Below the pieces are notes generated by a model. It made no database searches, had not been told where the DNA came from, and saw only the letters and a program-made list of their open reading frames with translations. From a virus (Duplodnaviria > Heunggongvirae > Uroviricota > Caudoviricetes): a stretch of 46,232 bases of DNA. Position numbers and translations under genes: made by a program. Shown here one piece after another: positions 3,884-27,764 of the stretch; position 1 is the stretch's first letter, and every line of letters begins with the position of its first letter. The DNA is taken from IMG/VR virus record IMGVR_UViG_2778261384_000001; one strand, 5' to 3'.

Positions 3884-6843
3884 TATGCAAGCCTCACAAT
3901 ATAGTTAAATGCGATGTTTTTGACGGTGTTTTCCGCGTTACCAGCAGCGTTAACGGTGATGGTGTGTCCATGTGAACCAATCGCAACGGAGTGCGTATGA
4001 GCACCAATACCGACAGTATGCGCGTGTGCACCTGCAGATGCTGCTGTGCCGGACAGTGAATGGCTATGATTACCATCTGTACTGGTATTCGCTAACCACC
4101 CCGTAGACATACCTACTGAGCCTTGTACACCCCAGGTATTTTGACCTGAGCTTGTATAACCATATTGATAAGTATCTTTAAAAACACTGGGGTTAAATCG
4201 ACGGCCATCTCTATGGCTGTGATTACCAGCTGCATTCGTGCTGCCACTTAAACTATGGGTATGCGCACCAGTGTTATTCGTGGATTTAGTGCCGTAATCA
4301 AACGACGATGTGGTTTTCGTCCCCAAATCCGTACTGGATGCGCTGGCGCTGTGGGTATGCGATTTAATGCCGTCCTGTTCCTGAGACAATACGGCCCGAC
4401 CACTGGCAGGTTTGCCCTTAATCGTCCAGCCACGCATATCAGGGATCACGCCTGACGGATAAGCGGCTGCAAGTTTCGGGTATGCAGATTTGTCAAAAGT
4501 CTGCCCCTGCATCAGGGCATAGCCAGACGGAACGGTATCTGATGGCCACGGGATTGGTGCGCCAGGCGGATAAAACTGCTCTGATGGCGTATAGAGTGAA
4601 TAAACTGTACCGTCCGTTAACCCTTCCGGCTTATTAGCAGAATATGCTGGTGACGTATGAATCGTCACGCTGGCATTACTGGTATAATCCCATTGAATAT
4701 TTACACCAGTCGCATAATTTCCGATTGCAACGTAAATATCGTAAGTATCACCAGATGTATTGACCCAGGCAAAATTTGTAAACCCTGTCGATGTGCGCTG
4801 CCATAAAGCACCAGTAATCCCCTTCGGATTACCATTACCTGCACGTAAAACAAGTTCAGATATACCTGCCTGTTGAGGTGACCCCACGTTAAATCCAGCG
4901 CCACCAATCAACGTAATTGAAACAACAGAACTCGCCTGTGGCATGGTTACCGTTGCTAATTTGAACCAACCAGCACCACCGCTGAATGACATTGTTGTTG
5001 AGTTAAGCGTACCAATATCTTTCGGCGTCAGTGTTATATCCGCTGAAAGCGCCTTACCATTCACCTTACGGGCAGAAGGTACCCGACCATTCGCATTGTC
5101 ATTAGCTGCTTTCACTGCTTTCGGTGTCGCAGCAAGCGTTTCAGATGTGCTGTTGGTTGCACTACTGAGCTGGACAATTCCTTTTTGTGCTGTCGTAGCG
5201 TCCTGTGCGGTGTATTTCCCGTTAGCCAGGTCATACGCGGCCTTAACGGCTTTTGGCGTTGCCGCCTGTGACTCGGAAGTGCTGTTAGTCGCACTGCTGA
5301 GCTGAACTATCCCTTTCTGTGCTGTCGTTGCATCCTGTGCGGTGTATTTCCCGTTAGCCAGGTCATACGCGGCCTTAACGGCTTTTGGCGTTGCCGCCTG
5401 TGACTCGGAAGTGCTGTTGGTCGCACTGCTGAGCTGTACTATCCCCTTTTTCGTCGTGCTCGCATCCTCAAGCGCCACGGCGGATGCAATATCCTCTGCC
5501 CGTTTTGCTGCTGTCTCGGCGCGCGTTGCCGCGGATTCCGCCGTACTTTTGCTCTGTGCTGCCGCTGCCGCACTGCCAGCAGCCTCTGTCGCCTTCGTGG
5601 ATGCCGTCGTGGCGCTGCCCCTCGCTGCTGACGCCTGTCTGGTCGCCTCATCTTTTGAAGCAGACGCAGATGATGCCGATGACGCCGCCGAACTGGCGGA
5701 CGATGCGGCAGCCGTTTTTGAGGATTCTGCGCTGGTTTCCGACGCTTTCGCGTTCGTTTCGGATGTCTTCGCTGCGGAAGCAGACCTCGCTGCTGCGCTG
5801 GCCTGTTCAGTGGCTTCGCCAGCCTTCGTTGTGGCTGTTGAAGCGGATGATGCGGCGCTTTCTGCCGATTTTCCGGCGGCGGTGGCACTGACTGCTGCCT
5901 CCTCTGCCTTAATGGACGCCTCACGGGCCGATGATGCAGCTGCTGTCTCAGAGTCTGCCGCAGCTGAGGCGCTCTGTTCCGCTGCCGTTTCAGAAGACCT
6001 GGCATTCGTCTCGGACGTTTTTGCCGCCTTCACGGAATTTCCTGCCGCCGTTGCCGAGGAGGCTGCACTGCTGGCGCTTGTGGAGGCGTTCGTTTCTGAT
6101 GATTTTGCCGCCTCTTTGGAGGCCGCCGCATCTCTGGCTGAAGTGGCGGCTTCTGACGCTTTCGTCGTCGCAGTGGATGCAGAAGTGGCTGCTGATTTTT
6201 GTGACGCTGCAGCATTCGTTTCTGACGTTTTCGCCGCACCGGCACTGGTGGCCGCCGCGCTTTTTGAGGACTCTGCAGCGGCAGCACTTTTTGATGCTTC
6301 AGTGGCCTTTGTTGATGCCGTTCCTGCGCTGGAAGACGCCTCCTGAGCCGAAGTCGCGGCCTGTCCGGCTGACGTGCTGGCTGCACGCGCTGAGCCTGCA
6401 GCATCAGTCGCATGGGTTGCCGCCTCACGGGCAGATGTGCCGGCATCACTGGCTGACTTCTTCGCGGCTGCCGTGTTCTGTGCCACCGCGGACGCGTTAC
6501 GCGCCACCTCTTCCACCATCAGTTCAAAACGGCGCAGAGCCTCCGGACGGGCATCATCCTCCGTCATGGCACCGAGAAAATCATTCAGCGTACCGGGTCG
6601 GGAATCTTCATACACGGTGATGGTCCCGGCATGTGACGGCGGGAATCCTTCCACCAACAGAATAACGCTGTACTGACCGTACTCAACGTCCATGCTGTAA
6701 CGCCCGGCTTCATCCGGATTTTCTGAGGCCAGCGTGTTCACCACCACCGTGGTGCTGTTACGTTTTGCTTTCAGCTGGATTGTGCAGTTCTGTACCGGTT
6801 TTCCTGTGCCGTCTTTCAGTACACCTGAAATCTTTACTGCCAT
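3883..6843 (-). CDS. stf: side tail fibre protein (Stf-like, about 986 aa) with Ala/Ser-rich shaft, 44-aa tandem repeats and His-rich C-terminal domain
   Basis: N-terminus [19 protein letters not shown]... lambda Stf-like; ATG at 6843 (ORF-track start 6849 is GTG). Confidence 0.85.
5070..5465. repeat. in-frame tandem direct repeats, 132-bp period (two near-identical copies 5201-5464 plus a diverged copy upstream) inside stf
   Basis: tcctgtgcggtgtatttcccgttagccaggtcatacgcggcc... recurs at 5201 and 5333; encodes repeated [42 protein letters not shown]. Confidence 0.8.
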
Positions 6844-21596: not shown

Positions 21597-23105
21597 TTAT
21601 TCTTCGGACTGGTCGTCGGTGTGCTGCGGCTCCTGTCGTTTCGTTGCGGCACTACTGCCTCCTTTATCACTGGCCGGATCGGTATCAAATACCAGATCCA
21701 GATTGCGGTTTTCATCAATTTCGGCCTTGCGCCGACGTTTGACATCATCCGGATTACGACCACCAGCACGTACCCAGTCTGATTCTGTCGCCGCTCCACC
21801 ACGAATCTGGATTTTCCAGGCCTCAGCCTCCTTAACAGGGTCAATCCACGGCATCACTGGTCCGGAATACACCGCGGTATACAGTGAAGAACGGTCAAGA
21901 TCGCGGGGTAGCCTGATAACACCGGATGCCACAGCCTGTTTCAGCCATGCACGATACATCGGGCGGGTGACGGCACCAATAAACCAGTCCTGCAGGATCA
22001 GGTAGCCATCAGTGGATTCAACCAGCTCCTGACGCTGGGCGCTGTAAGTGCCGTTATAGTTGCGCGCTGTACTGGAAAAACTCAGACGACTGCCCGCCGC
22101 CACGGCACGCAACTGACCATTACGAAAAGTTTCAAGGTTAGGATTGGGGCGATCCGACTTCACCATTCCGATTTCTTCGCCGGGTTTCAGATCGTCGTAA
22201 ATAATGCCCGGCTGAATGGTAAGCTCACGTTCATTCTCCTTTCTGCCATTACCATCCGGTTCATAGCTCTGCCCGTCGCCTTTCCGGATGTACATCCCCA
22301 GAGCAGCGGCGATCCTTGCTGCAGTCAGCTCAGAATCTTCATATTCTTTCAGGGCACTGAGGCGGATCAGCACACCGGACAACAAAGACGTCCCGCGCAT
22401 CTGGTGCAGACGGCGAACAAATTTAAGATGCAGCATTCGCTCTGCATCCACTTCTTTGGTTTCCATCTGCCGTCCGGATACGGGACGGCTTTTATACACC
22501 AGATATTTTTCGGGACGCCCCCAGTCATCAACAAACACGCCCTGATTCAGCCTGTTGCTCTCATCACTGGTCATGGGAATAAAGTCCGGCTCGAGCGCCT
22601 CCAGCCAGAAATGAACACCGGCAGAAGGCGCCAGGCTGTTTATGCGCCCGGAAACCATCTGGGCAAACACCTCACCATCGCGCAGCCAGGTACGAAGCAT
22701 CAGACGTTCCAGCATCGGACGGGTAAACTGCCCGGTGACTTCCGGGCTGACAGACCATTCACTCCATCGGGTGCGAATCTCCGCAGCCAGGTCACGGGCA
22801 ATGGCCCCATTGCGTAATACCGGATGTGGCTCGACAATAATCCCGTTTTTCCCCACCACCCGTTCTTCCAGCTTGTCAAATACACCAATAACCAGATCGT
22901 GGTTGTTATCAAGGTAACGGGCCTGCTCACGTAACGACACGGCCCCGTACTGGCTTAACTGGTCGGCAGTTCGGTTCTCCCGTCGGGCTTTGTGTGTCCG
23001 CGTCGTTTTTACGGCCTCATAAGCCTGGATCACCGCACGGGAACGCAGCCTTGCCGCTTTCCATCCTGGTGAAAAAACGCCAATCACATCATCAAGAATT
23101 GCCAT
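21597..23105 (-). CDS. portal protein (about 502 aa)
   Basis: Size and position between W-like/terminase and the protease-capsid gene; ATG 23105 overlaps W stop (TGATG). Confidence 0.85.
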   Translation of the reverse strand: MAILDDVIGVFSPGWKAARLRSRAVIQAYEAVKTTRTHKARRENRTADQLSQYGAVSLREQARYLDNNHDLVIGVFDKLEERVVGKNGIIVEPHPVLRNGAIARDLAAEIRTRWSEWSVSPEVTGQFTRPMLERLMLRTWLRDGEVFAQMVSGRINSLAPSAGVHFWLEALEPDFIPMTSDESNRLNQGVFVDDWGRPEKYLVYKSRPVSGRQMETKEVDAERMLHLKFVRRLHQMRGTSLLSGVLIRLSALKEYEDSELTAARIAAALGMYIRKGDGQSYEPDGNGRKENERELTIQPGIIYDDLKPGEEIGMVKSDRPNPNLETFRNGQLRAVAAGSRLSFSSTARNYNGTYSAQRQELVESTDGYLILQDWFIGAVTRPMYRAWLKQAVASGVIRLPRDLDRSSLYTAVYSGPVMPWIDPVKEAEAWKIQIRGGAATESDWVRAGGRNPDDVKRRRKAEIDENRNLDLVFDTDPASDKGGSSAATKRQEPQHTDDQSEE

Positions 23106-23317
23106 CAGAACCTCGCCAGCCGGTACCCGGGATGCCCCCGTCGTCGTGTAATCAGAGCCGCAAGGCGGCGCTCCCACTCCTGCCGTCCCTGCCGGATCTC
23201 AGATAAGTTTTCCATGGTCATCTGCTGACCATTAAAGGTGACGGATTTTCCGTCCAGCACCGCCATTTCAGCTTCCGTATAACGCTGAATCATGGCTTCG
23301 ATATCATTCTGGTTCAT
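23105..23317 (-). CDS. head-tail joining protein W-like (70 aa)
   Basis: Small protein after terminase large subunit; GGAGG RBS 6 nt upstream of ATG 23317; start overlaps terminase stop. Confidence 0.7.
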   Translation of the reverse strand: MNQNDIEAMIQRYTEAEMAVLDGKSVTFNGQQMTMENLSEIRQGRQEWERRLAALITRRRGHPGYRLARF

Positions 23318-25413
23318 AACCATCCTCCGGAAGTCAGCCAGGGGTTAACATCGTCAGTTACTGTTTTCTTCCGTTTTTGTTTTTTAACAGGCGTGGATAC
23401 CGGTTCCGGTGAGGATGACGGTTCGGTACTGTCCTGGACACACTCCAGCCAGGTCTCCCGGCTCGCCCACTCCGGTGCATCCGGCCAGCGGATCTTTTCG
23501 TATCCATGCAGAATGACCAGAGCCTCGGCATACACCATCAGGTCAAAAGCTTCGTTGGCACCGCGACCCGGCTTACTCCATTTCCCGTCACTGCTCCGCT
23601 CTTCATACATCAGTTCGTCGTAAAACCAGCTCCCCAGCCAGTCAGGGAAATGCACATAGCCTGGACCTGGCGAGTCACGCCATAACGCGTTATTCACCCG
23701 GTCTTTCAGGGCATCCGTCTGAAGAAGCCAGAGCGGCACATCACCTGCGGCCTGCGCCCGGCGGCCCGTTCGTCCGGTGTTATCAGGGAATGTACGGCTG
23801 ATCAGTTTTGCGCGCCGGATGCTGTCACCCTTAAACAGGTAAATACGTTTACCAAGGCCATCACGACGGCAACGACGCCAGAATTTATAGGCATTATCAG
23901 TGACCCCGTCTTCACCGCCGGAGTCCACCGCCATTGCCATCAGTCGCATTTGTTGAGAAGGATCGGAGGCCAGCGGCCAGCTTTTATGAAAAACATCCGT
24001 CAGCAGGACATCCCAGTCTTCCGGATAGCTGGCCGGATCAATTCGCTGGCTCTCCCCGTCGCAGTCACTGCGCAATGACTGCGTGATGTTGTAACGATCA
24101 ATAATCCAGCGTTCGCCACGACTGCCATAGCCCGTTACCTGAACCACAAAACGGCGATGACGTCCCGCCTGCACATCCACTGTCGCCACAAGGAAATTAA
24201 CGCCATCCGGCACACTGCGGGAAGGAACTGGCTCTGCCCGCTGCTCAAGCAGTTCACTTTTTCGTTGCTCCATGCTGGCACGAGGAAGATAAGGCAATCC
24301 CCAGTCGGTGTTGATAACCGCCCTGAGTGTTTCTTCGCTTCCTGTCGCTTCATACTCCTGTTCTGCAGTCAGTAATTTGTAAACCAGTTGCGCCCAGGTC
24401 TGATACGCAGCAGCTGGCCCTTCCATCCAGAAACTGGCGATACGGGAGCGGCGCGGTTCACCGGAAACGTTGCCGTTACGATCAATGACCTGACCTTCAC
24501 GCAACCAGACTCCTGCACTATTGAGCTCACGCTTTTTCTCCGCAGTGATAATGCCGCTGCAGTGCGGGCAAAGTAGATACGCCGCCTCACTGGCTTTAAA
24601 GGGATCCGGTTCATTACGGTAGCCGGTCATGGCATCCATGGCTGGCTGAAAATATTCACCGCAGTGCGGACATGACCAGTACCAGCGGCGGCGGTCACCA
24701 CGATTGTAAAGGGAAAGAATACCAGTCGTCGGTGGCGCTTCATGAGGCGACTTACGTCGCCATTTGCTGTCGCAGATGTCACGTCCCGGCGAGCTCTCCA
24801 CCAGAGTCATCCCGGCGGACATAAATGTGGTGGTACGTTTTGAGGCCAGGGAGAAACCATCACCCTCGCTGTCGATATTCTCCGGAAAACGGTCGTAATC
24901 GGTTAAGGCGACAAACCGGTAATCCGACGACGACATAATGTTGACCGAGGGCCAACCAATTTTAAGGAACGAGCCATCCCTGAACGTCTTATCATGGACA
25001 TTATTGTCGTTACGACGTGGACTCATTCTTTTCTTTACCGCCGCACTGCTTCTGAACGTTCTGTCGAGGCGCTTTTTAGAATGCTCGCGGGCCTTATCTT
25101 CGGTCATCTGCACAACGAGCATGTCCGAAGGATCGCAAACGATGGTATAGACAATCCATCCATCGATCAGACCAATGGTCTTCCCTGTTCGCGCAGGACC
25201 AACAAAAATCACCGCATCGTATTCACGCGATGCCAGGCAGTTCATGGGCTCAATGATGTAGGGTGTCAGTTCAGGATCCCATGGCACCGAGTTACCAGCC
25301 CCCTTGGGAACACGCATGAATTTTTTAACAGCCTCCGAAATCGGCATGCGACGTGGTGGGGAAAATCCTGCCGATATGTCCCTTCCCAAATTTCGGGCTG
25401 ATGAAAAACCCAT
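23314..25413 (-). CDS. terminase large subunit (lambda GpA family, 699 aa)
   Basis: CPHCGE zinc-ribbon motif as in lambda A; AGGAGG RBS; size. Confidence 0.9.
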   Translation of the reverse strand: MGFSSARNLGRDISAGFSPPRRMPISEAVKKFMRVPKGAGNSVPWDPELTPYIIEPMNCLASREYDAVIFVGPARTGKTIGLIDGWIVYTIVCDPSDMLVVQMTEDKAREHSKKRLDRTFRSSAAVKKRMSPRRNDNNVHDKTFRDGSFLKIGWPSVNIMSSSDYRFVALTDYDRFPENIDSEGDGFSLASKRTTTFMSAGMTLVESSPGRDICDSKWRRKSPHEAPPTTGILSLYNRGDRRRWYWSCPHCGEYFQPAMDAMTGYRNEPDPFKASEAAYLLCPHCSGIITAEKKRELNSAGVWLREGQVIDRNGNVSGEPRRSRIASFWMEGPAAAYQTWAQLVYKLLTAEQEYEATGSEETLRAVINTDWGLPYLPRASMEQRKSELLEQRAEPVPSRSVPDGVNFLVATVDVQAGRHRRFVVQVTGYGSRGERWIIDRYNITQSLRSDCDGESQRIDPASYPEDWDVLLTDVFHKSWPLASDPSQQMRLMAMAVDSGGEDGVTDNAYKFWRRCRRDGLGKRIYLFKGDSIRRAKLISRTFPDNTGRTGRRAQAAGDVPLWLLQTDALKDRVNNALWRDSPGPGYVHFPDWLGSWFYDELMYEERSSDGKWSKPGRGANEAFDLMVYAEALVILHGYEKIRWPDAPEWASRETWLECVQDSTEPSSSPEPVSTPVKKQKRKKTVTDDVNPWLTSGGWL

Positions 25414-25421
25414 TATTCCTC

Positions 25422-25949
25422 CTAGAGACTCTCTCCTTCCTCATCAGGAATTAATTCAGCAGCACAAGCCTCGTAGGATTTTTCCTGAAGAGTGTATCGC
25501 AGGTCATCAATGGCCTGCTGTACAACGCCGACGGCCTGAGGAGTCAGGGCGCAATCGCGTTCAAGAACATCCGGAATTGTCTCCAGAACCTGGACGACAG
25601 CCTTTCTCATGGACGAATAGACGATGACTACTTCATCAACGGGGATGAGTTTTCGCTGCTCCTTTTCCAGCTTGATCCTTTCATTTTCAGATTGGTACCA
25701 GTCCTTTCTCTCTTTCGGCTCCATACGGGATGGATCATGAACAGAGTCTGCTGCCTCATGCTTCACACTAAACAGGGCTGGCCCGACATGCTGCAGGGCG
25801 TAAACGGGGTTCCCCCTGATAGTCGCAGCCACAGGAGTGTTGGCCGCGAGGAGCCGTTTTTTTACTGTGTCCCGGTGAAGCCCAAAGGCCTCAGCGATTT
25901 TAAAAACACTCCAGTAATAAGCATCACCGATCCCGCTCACATTTGACAT
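25422..25949 (-). CDS. terminase small subunit (Nu1-like, HTH at N-terminus); start uncertain (ATG 25949 has a GGAG RBS; upstream ATGs at 25961 and 25979)
   Basis: Immediately upstream of terminase large subunit and downstream of cos; HTH-like YWSVFKIAEAFGLHRDTVKKRL. Confidence 0.75.
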   Translation of the reverse strand: MSNVSGIGDAYYWSVFKIAEAFGLHRDTVKKRLLAANTPVAATIRGNPVYALQHVGPALFSVKHEAADSVHDPSRMEPKERKDWYQSENERIKLEKEQRKLIPVDEVVIVYSSMRKAVVQVLETIPDVLERDCALTPQAVGVVQQAIDDLRYTLQEKSYEACAAELIPDEEGESL

Positions 25950-26128
25950 AAGCAACTCCATCTGGCAGGTGAAAATCATGTTTATTTATATATTTCAATT
26001 AATTGCAAACTGGTCTAATGACAGGGAGAAAAAAATATTGTACAGGTGAAAAGAGAAATAACTTTTAATTATCAATAAATTACCAAACATGCTGCCGCCG
26101 CCATGGAAATGCAAAAACTAGCCTTTTT

Positions 26129-26150
26129 CCGCGACGCTCCCGCCCCGTGG
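26129..26150. other. candidate cohesive-end site (cosN-like)
   Basis: Minus-strand reading GGGGCGGGAGCGTCGCGG followed by AT-rich DNA parallels remembered lambda left end GGGCGGCGACCTCGCGGG; about 180 bp upstream of Nu1. Confidence 0.5.
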
Positions 26151-26333
26151 CAGGGGCCCCCACCGGGAGGACCCGACAGCCTGACAGCCTGACAGCCGTG
26201 ATGAGCATCTGATACAGCGCTTTACATAATGGCATAGGAATAATTCAGAAGGACATCACAGCATGCCCACACAAATTAGTGTGAGTGTCCTGTTTCTTCC
26301 TACGCACAGGACTGACGAGCATGAGGGGAAAAT

Positions 26334-27028: not shown

Positions 27029-27439
27029 ATGGCTCAGGCTGCCATTTTTAAAGAAATATTCGATCAAGTGCGTAAAGATTTAAACTGTGAATTATTTTAT
27101 TCTGAGCTAAAACGTCACAATGTCTCACTTTATATTTACTATTTAGCCACAGATAATATTCACATTGTGTTAGAAAACGACAACATAGTGTTAGTAAAAG
27201 GACTCAAAAAGGTTGTAAATGTTAAATTCTCCAGAAACAAACATCTTATAGAGACCTCCTATAATAAGTTGAAATCAAAAGAAATCACATTTCAACAATA
27301 CAGGGAAAATCTTGCTAAAGCAGGAGTTTTCCGATGGGTTACAAATATCCAGGAACACCAAAGATATTACTATGCCTTTGATAACTCATTACTATTTACT
27401 GAAAGCATCCAGAAAACTACACAGATCTTACCACGCTAA
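27029..27439 (+). CDS. ydfO: DUF1398-type prophage protein, YdfO-like (136 aa)
   Basis: Protein [18 protein letters not shown]...[27 protein letters not shown] recalled as YdfO family; GGAAGG RBS before ATG 27029. Confidence 0.6.
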
Positions 27440-27590: not shown

Positions 27591-27764
27591 TCAGATTAAA
27601 TTAATCTTGACATCATAGCTTTCAAGACCCGTCATTTTTTCCCGTGCGGTAAACTGAATACTGGTAACTTCTTTCCCGGTCTTTTTCTTAAGTTCAATAA
27701 TTTTTTTTGTTATATATTCAGAAATATCTGCTTCTGCTTTTGTTTTTAAGTTTTCAATATTCAT
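27591..27764 (-). CDS. gnsB: GnsA/GnsB-family small protein (57 aa)
   Basis: Translated MNIENLKTKAEADISEYITKKIIELKKKTGKEVTSIQFTAREKMTGLESYDVKINLI; not in ORF track (below 60 aa). Confidence 0.7.
   Translation of the reverse strand: MNIENLKTKAEADISEYITKKIIELKKKTGKEVTSIQFTAREKMTGLESYDVKINLI

Follow-up and report, generated by a model that had tools for sequence, protein, structure and literature searches.

The DNA analysed here, called the window throughout, is a stretch of 46,232 nucleotides from a tailed virus (Caudoviricetes; IMG/VR record IMGVR_UViG_2778261384_000001), and its packaging locus is read on the minus strand. The small terminase subunit gene (terS, DUF1441 family) lies at 25422..25961, with its start at 25961, giving 179 amino acids as in the cdtI annotation, or at 25949, giving 175 amino acids as in the Tritos and RefSeq annotations. 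The large terminase subunit gene (terL, 23314..25413) belongs by Pfam to the lambda gpA family with ATPase and endonuclease domains, and a lambda-family portal gene (23177..21597, minus) comes after it. Upstream of terS the minus strand reads ...TCATCA CGGCTGTC AGGCTGTC AGGCTGTC GGGTCCT CCCGGTGGGGGCCCCTGCCACG GGGCGGGAGCGT CGCGGAAAAAGGCTAGTTTTTG... From sequence comparison we read positions 25966-26174 (minus) as the cos site of a lambda-like E. coli prophage, in which the elements appear to run cosQ, spacer, cosN, I2-like segment, cosB, terS and terL, the same order as in lambda; we put the probability of this reading at roughly 0.86.

The window matches a prophage region at the Qin locus in many E. 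coli chromosomes, and it is 99.99% identical over 7.7 kb to the prophage at that locus in E. coli strain 190. Three phages carry a TerS 99.4% identical to that of the window, namely cdtI (AB285204/NC_009514), Tritos (OV696610, E. coli LF82 prophage 3) and HannyBb (PP925841). All have the same cosQ, cohesive end, I2-like segment and cosB, and depart from the window at a few single positions in the spacer and cosB. The cos region of Tritos is 99% identical to that of the window, as is its terminase, and HannyBb is 95.9% identical over the region. In the RefSeq annotation of strain 190 nothing is annotated in the cos interval, and in the HannyBb record hypothetical coding sequences are called across the cos site. 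These look like over-annotation equivalent to the open reading frame at 26080..26235 (minus, 51 amino acids), which we rejected as a gene: it has no Pfam match and spans cosQ, cosN and cosB.

The predicted cosN, CG|GGGCGGGAGCGT|CG or, by halves, CG|GGGCGG GAGCGT|CG, lies at 26132..26147 (minus) and was placed by its match to lambda and by the starts of phage records. Aligned with the lambda left cohesive end, it gives a predicted 12-nt 5' cohesive end, GGGCGGGAGCGT, at 26145..26134 (minus). Homology and the linearisation of two phage records together place the predicted nicks at 26146/26145 (minus strand) and 26134/26133 (plus strand), which would leave 5'-ACGCTCCCGCCC as the complementary right-end overhang. 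The two records are the GenBank entries of cdtI and Tritos, both of which begin GGGCGGGAGCGT with base 1 at window position 26145 by BLAST, in register with the lambda left end GGGCGGCGACCT; these record starts may have been chosen by homology, and the cdtI entry bears the label circular. In the Tritos paper cos goes unmentioned and no ends are mapped (PMC9928086). No end mapping for this cos was found in the literature searched, and none of the phage papers in the library searched contains the exact string of the cohesive end.

The first-pass annotation had proposed a lambda-like cosN core here, and the core is indeed present, as GGGGCGGGAGCGTCGCGG at 26146..26129 (minus) with AT-rich DNA after it and the cdtI and Tritos records beginning at 26145. 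The alignment to lambda cos that it had suggested as a check was run against the lambda genome (J02459): the cohesive end is identical at 8 of 12 positions (1-6, 10 and 12) and differs at 7, 8, 9 and 11, both flanking CG dinucleotides are kept, the cosQ heptamer matches, and CGCGG directly follows GGGCGGGAGCGT on the minus strand as it follows the nick in lambda. Counted from the predicted nick, GGGCGGGAGCGTCGCGGA of the window matches GGGCGGCGACCTCGCGGG of lambda at 13 of 18 positions (mismatches at 7, 8, 9, 11 and 18); the likeness to the lambda left end claimed earlier stands at 13 of 18, with the correction that the original alignment was offset by one G. Two-fold symmetry covers 8 of 16 bp in this cosN and 10 of 16 in lambda. 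For Feiss and colleagues a phage counts as lambda-like if it has 12-base 5' extensions resembling those of lambda; they find natural cosN variation concentrated in bp 7-12, with bp 1-6 and the flanking CGs conserved; the cosN of Gifsy-1, for example, differs at 8, 9 and 11 (PMC4669245). The differences in the window fall in the naturally variable half and fit that pattern exactly. A search for the composite pattern GGGTCCT-N18-26-CGGGGCGG-N6-CG gave a single match in the 46-kb window (26174..26132, minus) and no match in 100 dinucleotide shuffles.

The cosQ-equivalent heptamer GGGTCCT, identical to that of lambda, lies at 26168..26174 (minus), 22 nt from the predicted nick as against 23 nt in lambda. 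Among lambda-like phages the 7-bp cosQ is strongly conserved, and the nicking that terminates packaging requires it (PMC4669245). Between cosQ and cosN is a 22-nt spacer, CCCGGTGGGGGCCCCTGCCACG (26146..26167, minus), which is GC-rich and conserved in the cos subfamily with DUF1441-type TerS, whereas the lambda spacer, TTCCGGTGATCCGACAGGTTACG, has 23 nt. The first-pass annotation had pointed to an unusually GC-rich tract next to cosN, and the tract is real: the GC content is 0.75-0.83 at 26120-26179 and 0.20-0.33 in the adjacent 25960-26080. As judged from the sequence, it is cosQ plus the subfamily-specific cosQ-cosN spacer and no additional element. A reading of the GC tract or the neighbouring octamers as a transcription terminator or promoter was rejected, as the scan returned no terminators there and a single weak promoter-like site at a distance upstream, which is no excess over shuffled sequence. 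Likewise rejected was a structured RNA or DNA element, as the fold of the 111-nt segment is not unusual (z = +0.5; equalled or bettered by 135 of 200 shuffles) and Rfam gave nothing at E <= 1.

Scanning IMG/VR with GGGTCCT-N19-25-CGGGGCGG and classing the matches by the proteins encoded downstream gave two cos subfamilies. Nu1-type loci have the spacer TTCCGGCGATCCGACAGGTTACG and, after cosN, CGCGGGTTTTCGCTATTTATGAAAATTT; DUF1441-type loci have the spacer CC(C/T)GG(T/C)GGGG(T/G)(G/C)(G/C)CCTGCCACG and, after cosN, CGCGGAAAAAGGCTAGTTTTTG. In dozens of independent loci cosQ, cosN and the I2-like segment keep the same order and spacing before terS-terL, although the invariance of GGGTCCT and GGGCGG in these samples is forced, at least in part, by the search patterns. 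A few loci (L009, L027) join the GC-rich spacer to a Nu1-type right side, mixed sites that point to recombination within cosN. Other members of the DUF1441-type subfamily are mEp213/LLS, mEp460-type phages, Gifsy-2, Fels-1 and Stx/VT1-Sakai-type prophages, which share with the window the TerS family, the GC-rich spacer and an I2-like CGCGG(A/G)AAA(A/C)GGCTAGTTTTT. A putative end, GGGCGGCGCGCT, has been given for mEp213/LLS (PMC12315714). In Gifsy-2, a Providencia phage and one further locus (L247), AGGTACT replaces GGGTCCT. The cosN of Gifsy-1, as cited by Feiss, was compared along with these sites.

Numbering base pairs from the left end, with bp 1 at 26145, the I2-like segment CGCGGAAAAAGGCTAGTTTTTG covers bp 13-34 (26112..26133, minus). 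It is shared across DUF1441-type cos sites, even where the identity between their TerS proteins is only ~40%, and its likeness to the lambda I2 counterpart, CGCGGGTTTTCGCTATTTATGA, is only partial. I2, between cosN and cosB, is needed for termination (PMC4669245). Conservation in cosB and the spacer was measured in 59 loci (28 haplotypes) of the window's own clade. Base pairs 1-23, 35-53, 63-79 and 168-214 are invariant, and the variants are located in the spacer and in the distal of two copies of TTTTCACCTG. Within the spacer they fall at -22, -19, -17, -15, -12, -11, -10 and -5, and the last 4 bp before the nick are invariant, the final CG being forced by the search pattern.

At the position of R3 lies CATGGCGGCGGCAGCATG (26088..26105, minus; bp 41-58), an imperfect GC-rich palindrome and the candidate recognition site for the small terminase; lambda R3 is at bp 50-65 (PMC9026076). 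In relatives collected through their TerS proteins, the position holds CATGCTGGCGGCAGCATG in a phage with an 83% identical TerS and CATGCTGTCAGCAGCAGG in a Providencia phage, and other TerS groups have unrelated blocks. In nine of nine sequences, which fall into three types, the kind of block goes with residues 25-28 of TerS, part of the predicted recognition helix, an agreement that could be linkage alone given that the two features are <150 bp apart. CATG(G/C)(C/T)G-N4-CAGCA(T/G)G goes with H/N-R-D/G-T (the window, the 83% relative and the 56% Providencia phage), CATGGGGACACCACCA with D-R-K-A/V (P0016, P0022 and P0044) and GATCGCCATCATCAGCA with D-R-A-T (P0023, P0029 and P0033), and this sorting cuts across overall TerS identity. 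The window has no lambda-type R sequences, and no R2 or R1 copies of its own R3 block were found in its cosB, so its cosB layout is not demonstrably lambda-like. Other DUF1441-TerS phages (mEp213/LLS, Gifsy-2, Fels-1 and others; TerS ~35-57% identical to that of the window) instead have (CAT)n-like or GGGACACCACCA blocks at the R3 position, each clade with its own block in inverted and direct copies in a lambda-like R3-I1-R2-R1 arrangement. The simple cosB of N15, with a single critical R3 (PMC4669245), offers another comparison; N15, however, has a Nu1-type TerS and lambda packaging specificity, whereas the window has the other TerS family and an internal 77-bp cosB duplication.

An exact IHF consensus, TATCAATAAATTA, lies at 26070..26082 (bp 64-76) on the plus strand, which is the bottom strand from the left end. 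It is the sole exact match to WATCAANNNNTTR in the whole window on both strands; with 2.4 such matches expected by chance window-wide, it is the position and not the number that counts as an argument. The best IHF match in lambda is on the same strand at bp 79-91, likewise just after R3, and the consensus in the window is a candidate for the I1-equivalent bend site. A diverged direct duplication with an offset of 77 bp (bp 60-103 and bp 137-180; 25966..26086, minus) was missed by a seed-7 repeat search and detected by a custom diagonal test, with 29 of 44 positions matching at offset 77, a score reached in none of 300 dinucleotide shuffles (maximum 27). In both copies an IHF-like core comes before TTTTCACCTG (26052..26043 and 25975..25966), and the second core, at 26005..25993, has one mismatch to the consensus. 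We considered TTTTCACCTG as the main TerS site, and that candidate was weakened: bp 98 and 100 of the distal copy are variable, and the 83% TerS relative preserves neither of the two. The TerS-proximal copy is nevertheless invariant in the clade and recurs in the Providencia phage and in two further loci (L243 and L250).

The first-pass annotation had named the downstream gene Nu1 and had called its distance from cosN the expected one. The distance is similar, the predicted left end being 184 or 196 bp from the terS start (ATG at bp 185 or 197) compared with 190 bp in lambda. The gene name does not hold: TerS occupies the same position, but its sole Pfam match is PF07278/DUF1441 (4e-44), it falls in PHROG 141 'terminase small subunit' (1.8e-64), a BLASTP comparison with lambda Nu1 shows no similarity (E = 4.6), and it does not match Phage_Nu1 (PF07471). 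A sequence search against solved structures found no similarity either, and sequence homology to Nu1 or to any solved structure was discarded. An AlphaFold (AF2) model built from a 44-sequence alignment (pLDDT 83) folds residues 12-60 into a strand-HTH-wing (strand 12-14, helices 15-22 and 26-35, beta hairpin 40-51) and continues with long helices. The best local Foldseek matches are to MerR-type winged HTH domains (RacA, BldC, Xis and 7lwr_A, a viral packaging-motor entry), with target-normalised TM scores of 0.6-0.74 and all E > 0.03, and lambda Nu1 itself has weak MerR/HTH Pfam matches. This TerS plausibly works like Nu1 though it stands outside the Nu1 family. No experimental description of DNA recognition by the DUF1441 family was found in the literature searched. 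The large subunit matches GpA_ATPase (4e-80) and GpA_nuclease (5e-86), and, as a gpA-family TerL encoded just downstream of cos, it is the enzyme expected to nick cosN.

Directly upstream of cosQ, and abutting it without a gap, is the octamer array CGGCTGTC AGGCTGTC AGGCTGTC (26175..26198, minus), which on the plus strand reads as two copies of GACAGCCT plus GACAGCCG. The three tandem octamers described at first pass thus exist as a perfect period-8 repeat: Tandem Repeats Finder reports 26175-26197, 2.9 copies with 100% matches and the consensus GACAGCCT. The double unit is found nowhere else in the window (0.05 expected). There are three copies in the window and in Tritos, two in HannyBb and E. 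coli HS (CGGTTGTC AGGCTGTC) and none in cdtI, where GATAATCAC..., a lambda-like sequence, stands upstream of cosQ instead; lambda has the palindrome GATAATCATTATC where the window has octamers. Among 121 IMG/VR loci with at least one unit beside cosQ, 88 have two copies, 22 have three, one has four and ten have a single copy, some of the single-copy matches being probably due to chance. Arrays of two and three copies occur beside TerS proteins at least 90% identical to that of the window and beside others only ~42% identical to it, and a 30-nt context upstream of the array is common to nearly all of the IMG/VR octamer loci. A PhoB-box-like reading of the CTGTCAG repeats was set aside, because their period is 8 bp and Pho boxes are spaced at 11 bp. 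No paper linking cosQ to a Fur box was found in the literature searched.

An unbiased sample of cos sites was also classed by the 45 nt upstream of cosQ. Of 92 distinct loci, 49 had a GATAATCATTATC-type palindrome, 13 a terminator hairpin, 8 octamers and 22 unrelated sequence. In E. coli genomes, homology breaks off at cosQ and again ~35 bp past cosN, which delimits modules. Many E. coli genome matches start at query positions 153-157, equivalent to window 26178-26174, and homology with cdtI and many E. coli prophages begins approximately at cosQ. On the simplest reading of these sequences, the octamers would belong to the upstream (ybcW-side) DNA module independently of TerS type, and they are most likely a dispensable repeat, prone to replication slippage and variable in copy number, dispensability here being read from natural variants.

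The octamers had initially been put forward as possible binding elements for terminase or a host factor, and a wider form of this idea is that the array is a functional accessory cos element, which binds terminase, portal-associated factors or a host protein and through its copy number tunes cosQ-dependent termination. The placement of the array against cosQ with no spacer would suit such a role, as would the fact that at least one AGGCTGTC unit beside cosQ is common in IMG/VR and that the cosQ-adjacent octamer is the best conserved, with variation mostly in the distal unit (CGGTTGTC versus CGGCTGTC). In other lineages, about half of the cos loci have a conserved GATAATCATTATC at the same position, which may thus not be neutral. 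Yet cdtI has a TerS 99.4% identical to that of the window and the same cosQ, cosN and cosB, and it has no octamers. Neither the presence nor the copy number of the array is conserved among phages that share this TerS, copy number (1-4) has no link to TerS clade, and the array, always accompanied by the same upstream 30-nt context, behaves as part of the upstream module. What stands upstream of cosQ can be exchanged between lineages, being a palindrome in some and a terminator hairpin, octamers or unrelated sequence in others, and the array itself has no terminator, promoter, unusual fold or Rfam match. With 0-4 copies beside the same TerS and cos, the octamers are probably not binding elements, and we regard an accessory cos function as improbable. 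A shade less probable again is the broader proposal that the segment upstream of cosQ is an unrecognised fourth cos subsite affecting termination or processivity, represented here by 1-4 octamers tuned by slippage and in other lineages by the GATAATCATTATC palindrome or a terminator hairpin. In a weaker companion to that proposal, the packaging specificity of this TerS clade would be new and would depend on a palindromic R3 of the CATG-N10-CATG type, not on lambda-style R3/R2/R1.

The site could also be a cos-like relic in a defective prophage, no longer used in packaging, given that the window matches the Qin-locus prophage region of many E. coli chromosomes, that many such prophages are cryptic, and that the near-identical copy in E. 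coli strain 190 carries an IS1 insertion near cos. However, the window itself is without IS1, all cos subsites are intact, and terS, terL and the portal gene have full-length reading frames. Tritos, 99% identical in cos and terminase, is a siphovirus that produces virions and forms plaques (PMC9928086), and HannyBb was deposited as a phage with E. coli as host. Decay of the site is therefore unlikely, more so than a function for the octamers. Least credible, at odds we consider close to negligible, is that the match to lambda cosN is a coincidence of GC-rich sequence and that packaging starts from another site or is headful: the composite pattern is absent from all 100 shuffles, cosQ, cosN and the I2-like segment keep their order and spacing before terS-terL across dozens of independent loci, and the TerL belongs to the gpA family, which is associated with 5' cohesive ends (PMC12315714). 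We conclude that the locus is a real and intact cos site of lambda type, within the DUF1441-TerS subfamily.

By analogy with lambda, packaging at this site might proceed as follows. The DUF1441 TerS would bind cosB through its N-terminal winged HTH, probably at the near-palindromic block at bp 41-58, and binding would be assisted by IHF bending at bp 64-76. The bound TerS would position the gpA-family TerL for staggered cosN nicks, generating 12-nt 5' ends with 5'-GGGCGGGAGCGT at the left. Packaging would then proceed toward the head genes and end at the next cos, where cosQ (GGGTCCT), cosN and the I2-like segment would be needed, and the octamers upstream of cosQ would not be needed for packaging. 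The homology to lambda, the gene content, the conservation pattern and the repeat polymorphism are observed; the nick positions, protein-DNA contacts and IHF use in this scheme are inferred from the lambda system.

The analysis places the packaging origin and the predicted virion ends, with a 5'-GGGCGGGAGCGT overhang, for a prophage family that is common at the Qin locus of E. coli and has the CDT-I-converting phage and the LF82 prophage Tritos among its members. It also offers a concrete cosB map for a DUF1441-type small terminase, and natural variants indicate which cosQ-adjacent sequences are dispensable. The significance is mainly one of annotation, and the established lambda-type packaging model is unchanged.

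In lambda (locus 47800-48502), an exact palindrome, GATAATCATTATC, lies 7 bp upstream of cosQ (in the region about 8-20 bp upstream), whereas the window lacks this palindrome and carries the three tandem octamers (26175-26198) in its place. Among 92 distinct lambda-like cos loci sampled from IMG/VR (L007-L126), 49 have GATAATCATTATC within 3 mismatches at 4-9 bp from cosQ, and these 49 include loci of both the Nu1 and the DUF1441 small-terminase types. By sequence, the palindrome resembles a Fur box, with the lambda copy differing at 3 positions from the 19-mer consensus. In the literature searched, no paper connects cosQ with a Fur box.

Some IMG/VR contigs contain two or three cos-like sites each (L008, L023, L028, L036, L067, L077, L097, L098, L101, L123 and L124). 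Many of these sites have a terminator hairpin, GGCCGGAGAAATCCGGCTTTTTTT, upstream and no terminase genes downstream, and they look like the cos sites of PICI-type satellites located beside or inside prophage regions.

On the ybcV/ybcW side of cos, about 1 kb upstream, the window has a second short tandem repeat (27162-27203; period 21, 2 copies, 85% matches). Further along, an inserted IS1 in E. coli strain 190 (3921-4688 of its locus) separates the DUF1398 (ybcV-like) gene from the cold-shock/GnsA-like moron genes. The IS1 is absent from the window (equivalent position approximately 27635-27642); apart from it, the two sequences are 99-99.99% identical. A minus-strand ORF of 51 aa with an ATG start (26080-26235) covers cosQ and cosN together with a portion of cosB. 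In HannyBb, hypothetical proteins are annotated over the equivalent stretch (CDS 364-519 and 501-596, with cosQ at 417 and the cohesive end at 446), and these CDSs are probably over-annotations.

Where cosQ is expected, AGGTACT replaces GGGTCCT in several DUF1441-type relatives (among Gifsy-2, L242; Providencia phage PSTCR8lys, L241; L244, L247 and L248), and in Gifsy-2 the two flanking CG dinucleotides enclose 14 nt (GGTGGCTTCGGGCT), not 12. Because of these differences, cosQ and cosN are less invariant in the DUF1441-type subfamily than one would expect from published work on Nu1-type phages. The IMG/VR loci L009 and L027 are hybrid cos sites: their left side carries the GC-rich cosQ-cosN spacer of the DUF1441 type, and their right side a Nu1-type I2/cosB and a Nu1 gene. 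The right halves of their cohesive ends are novel (GGGCGGAAGGCG and GGGCGGCAGCGG). This architecture suggests recombination within cosN.
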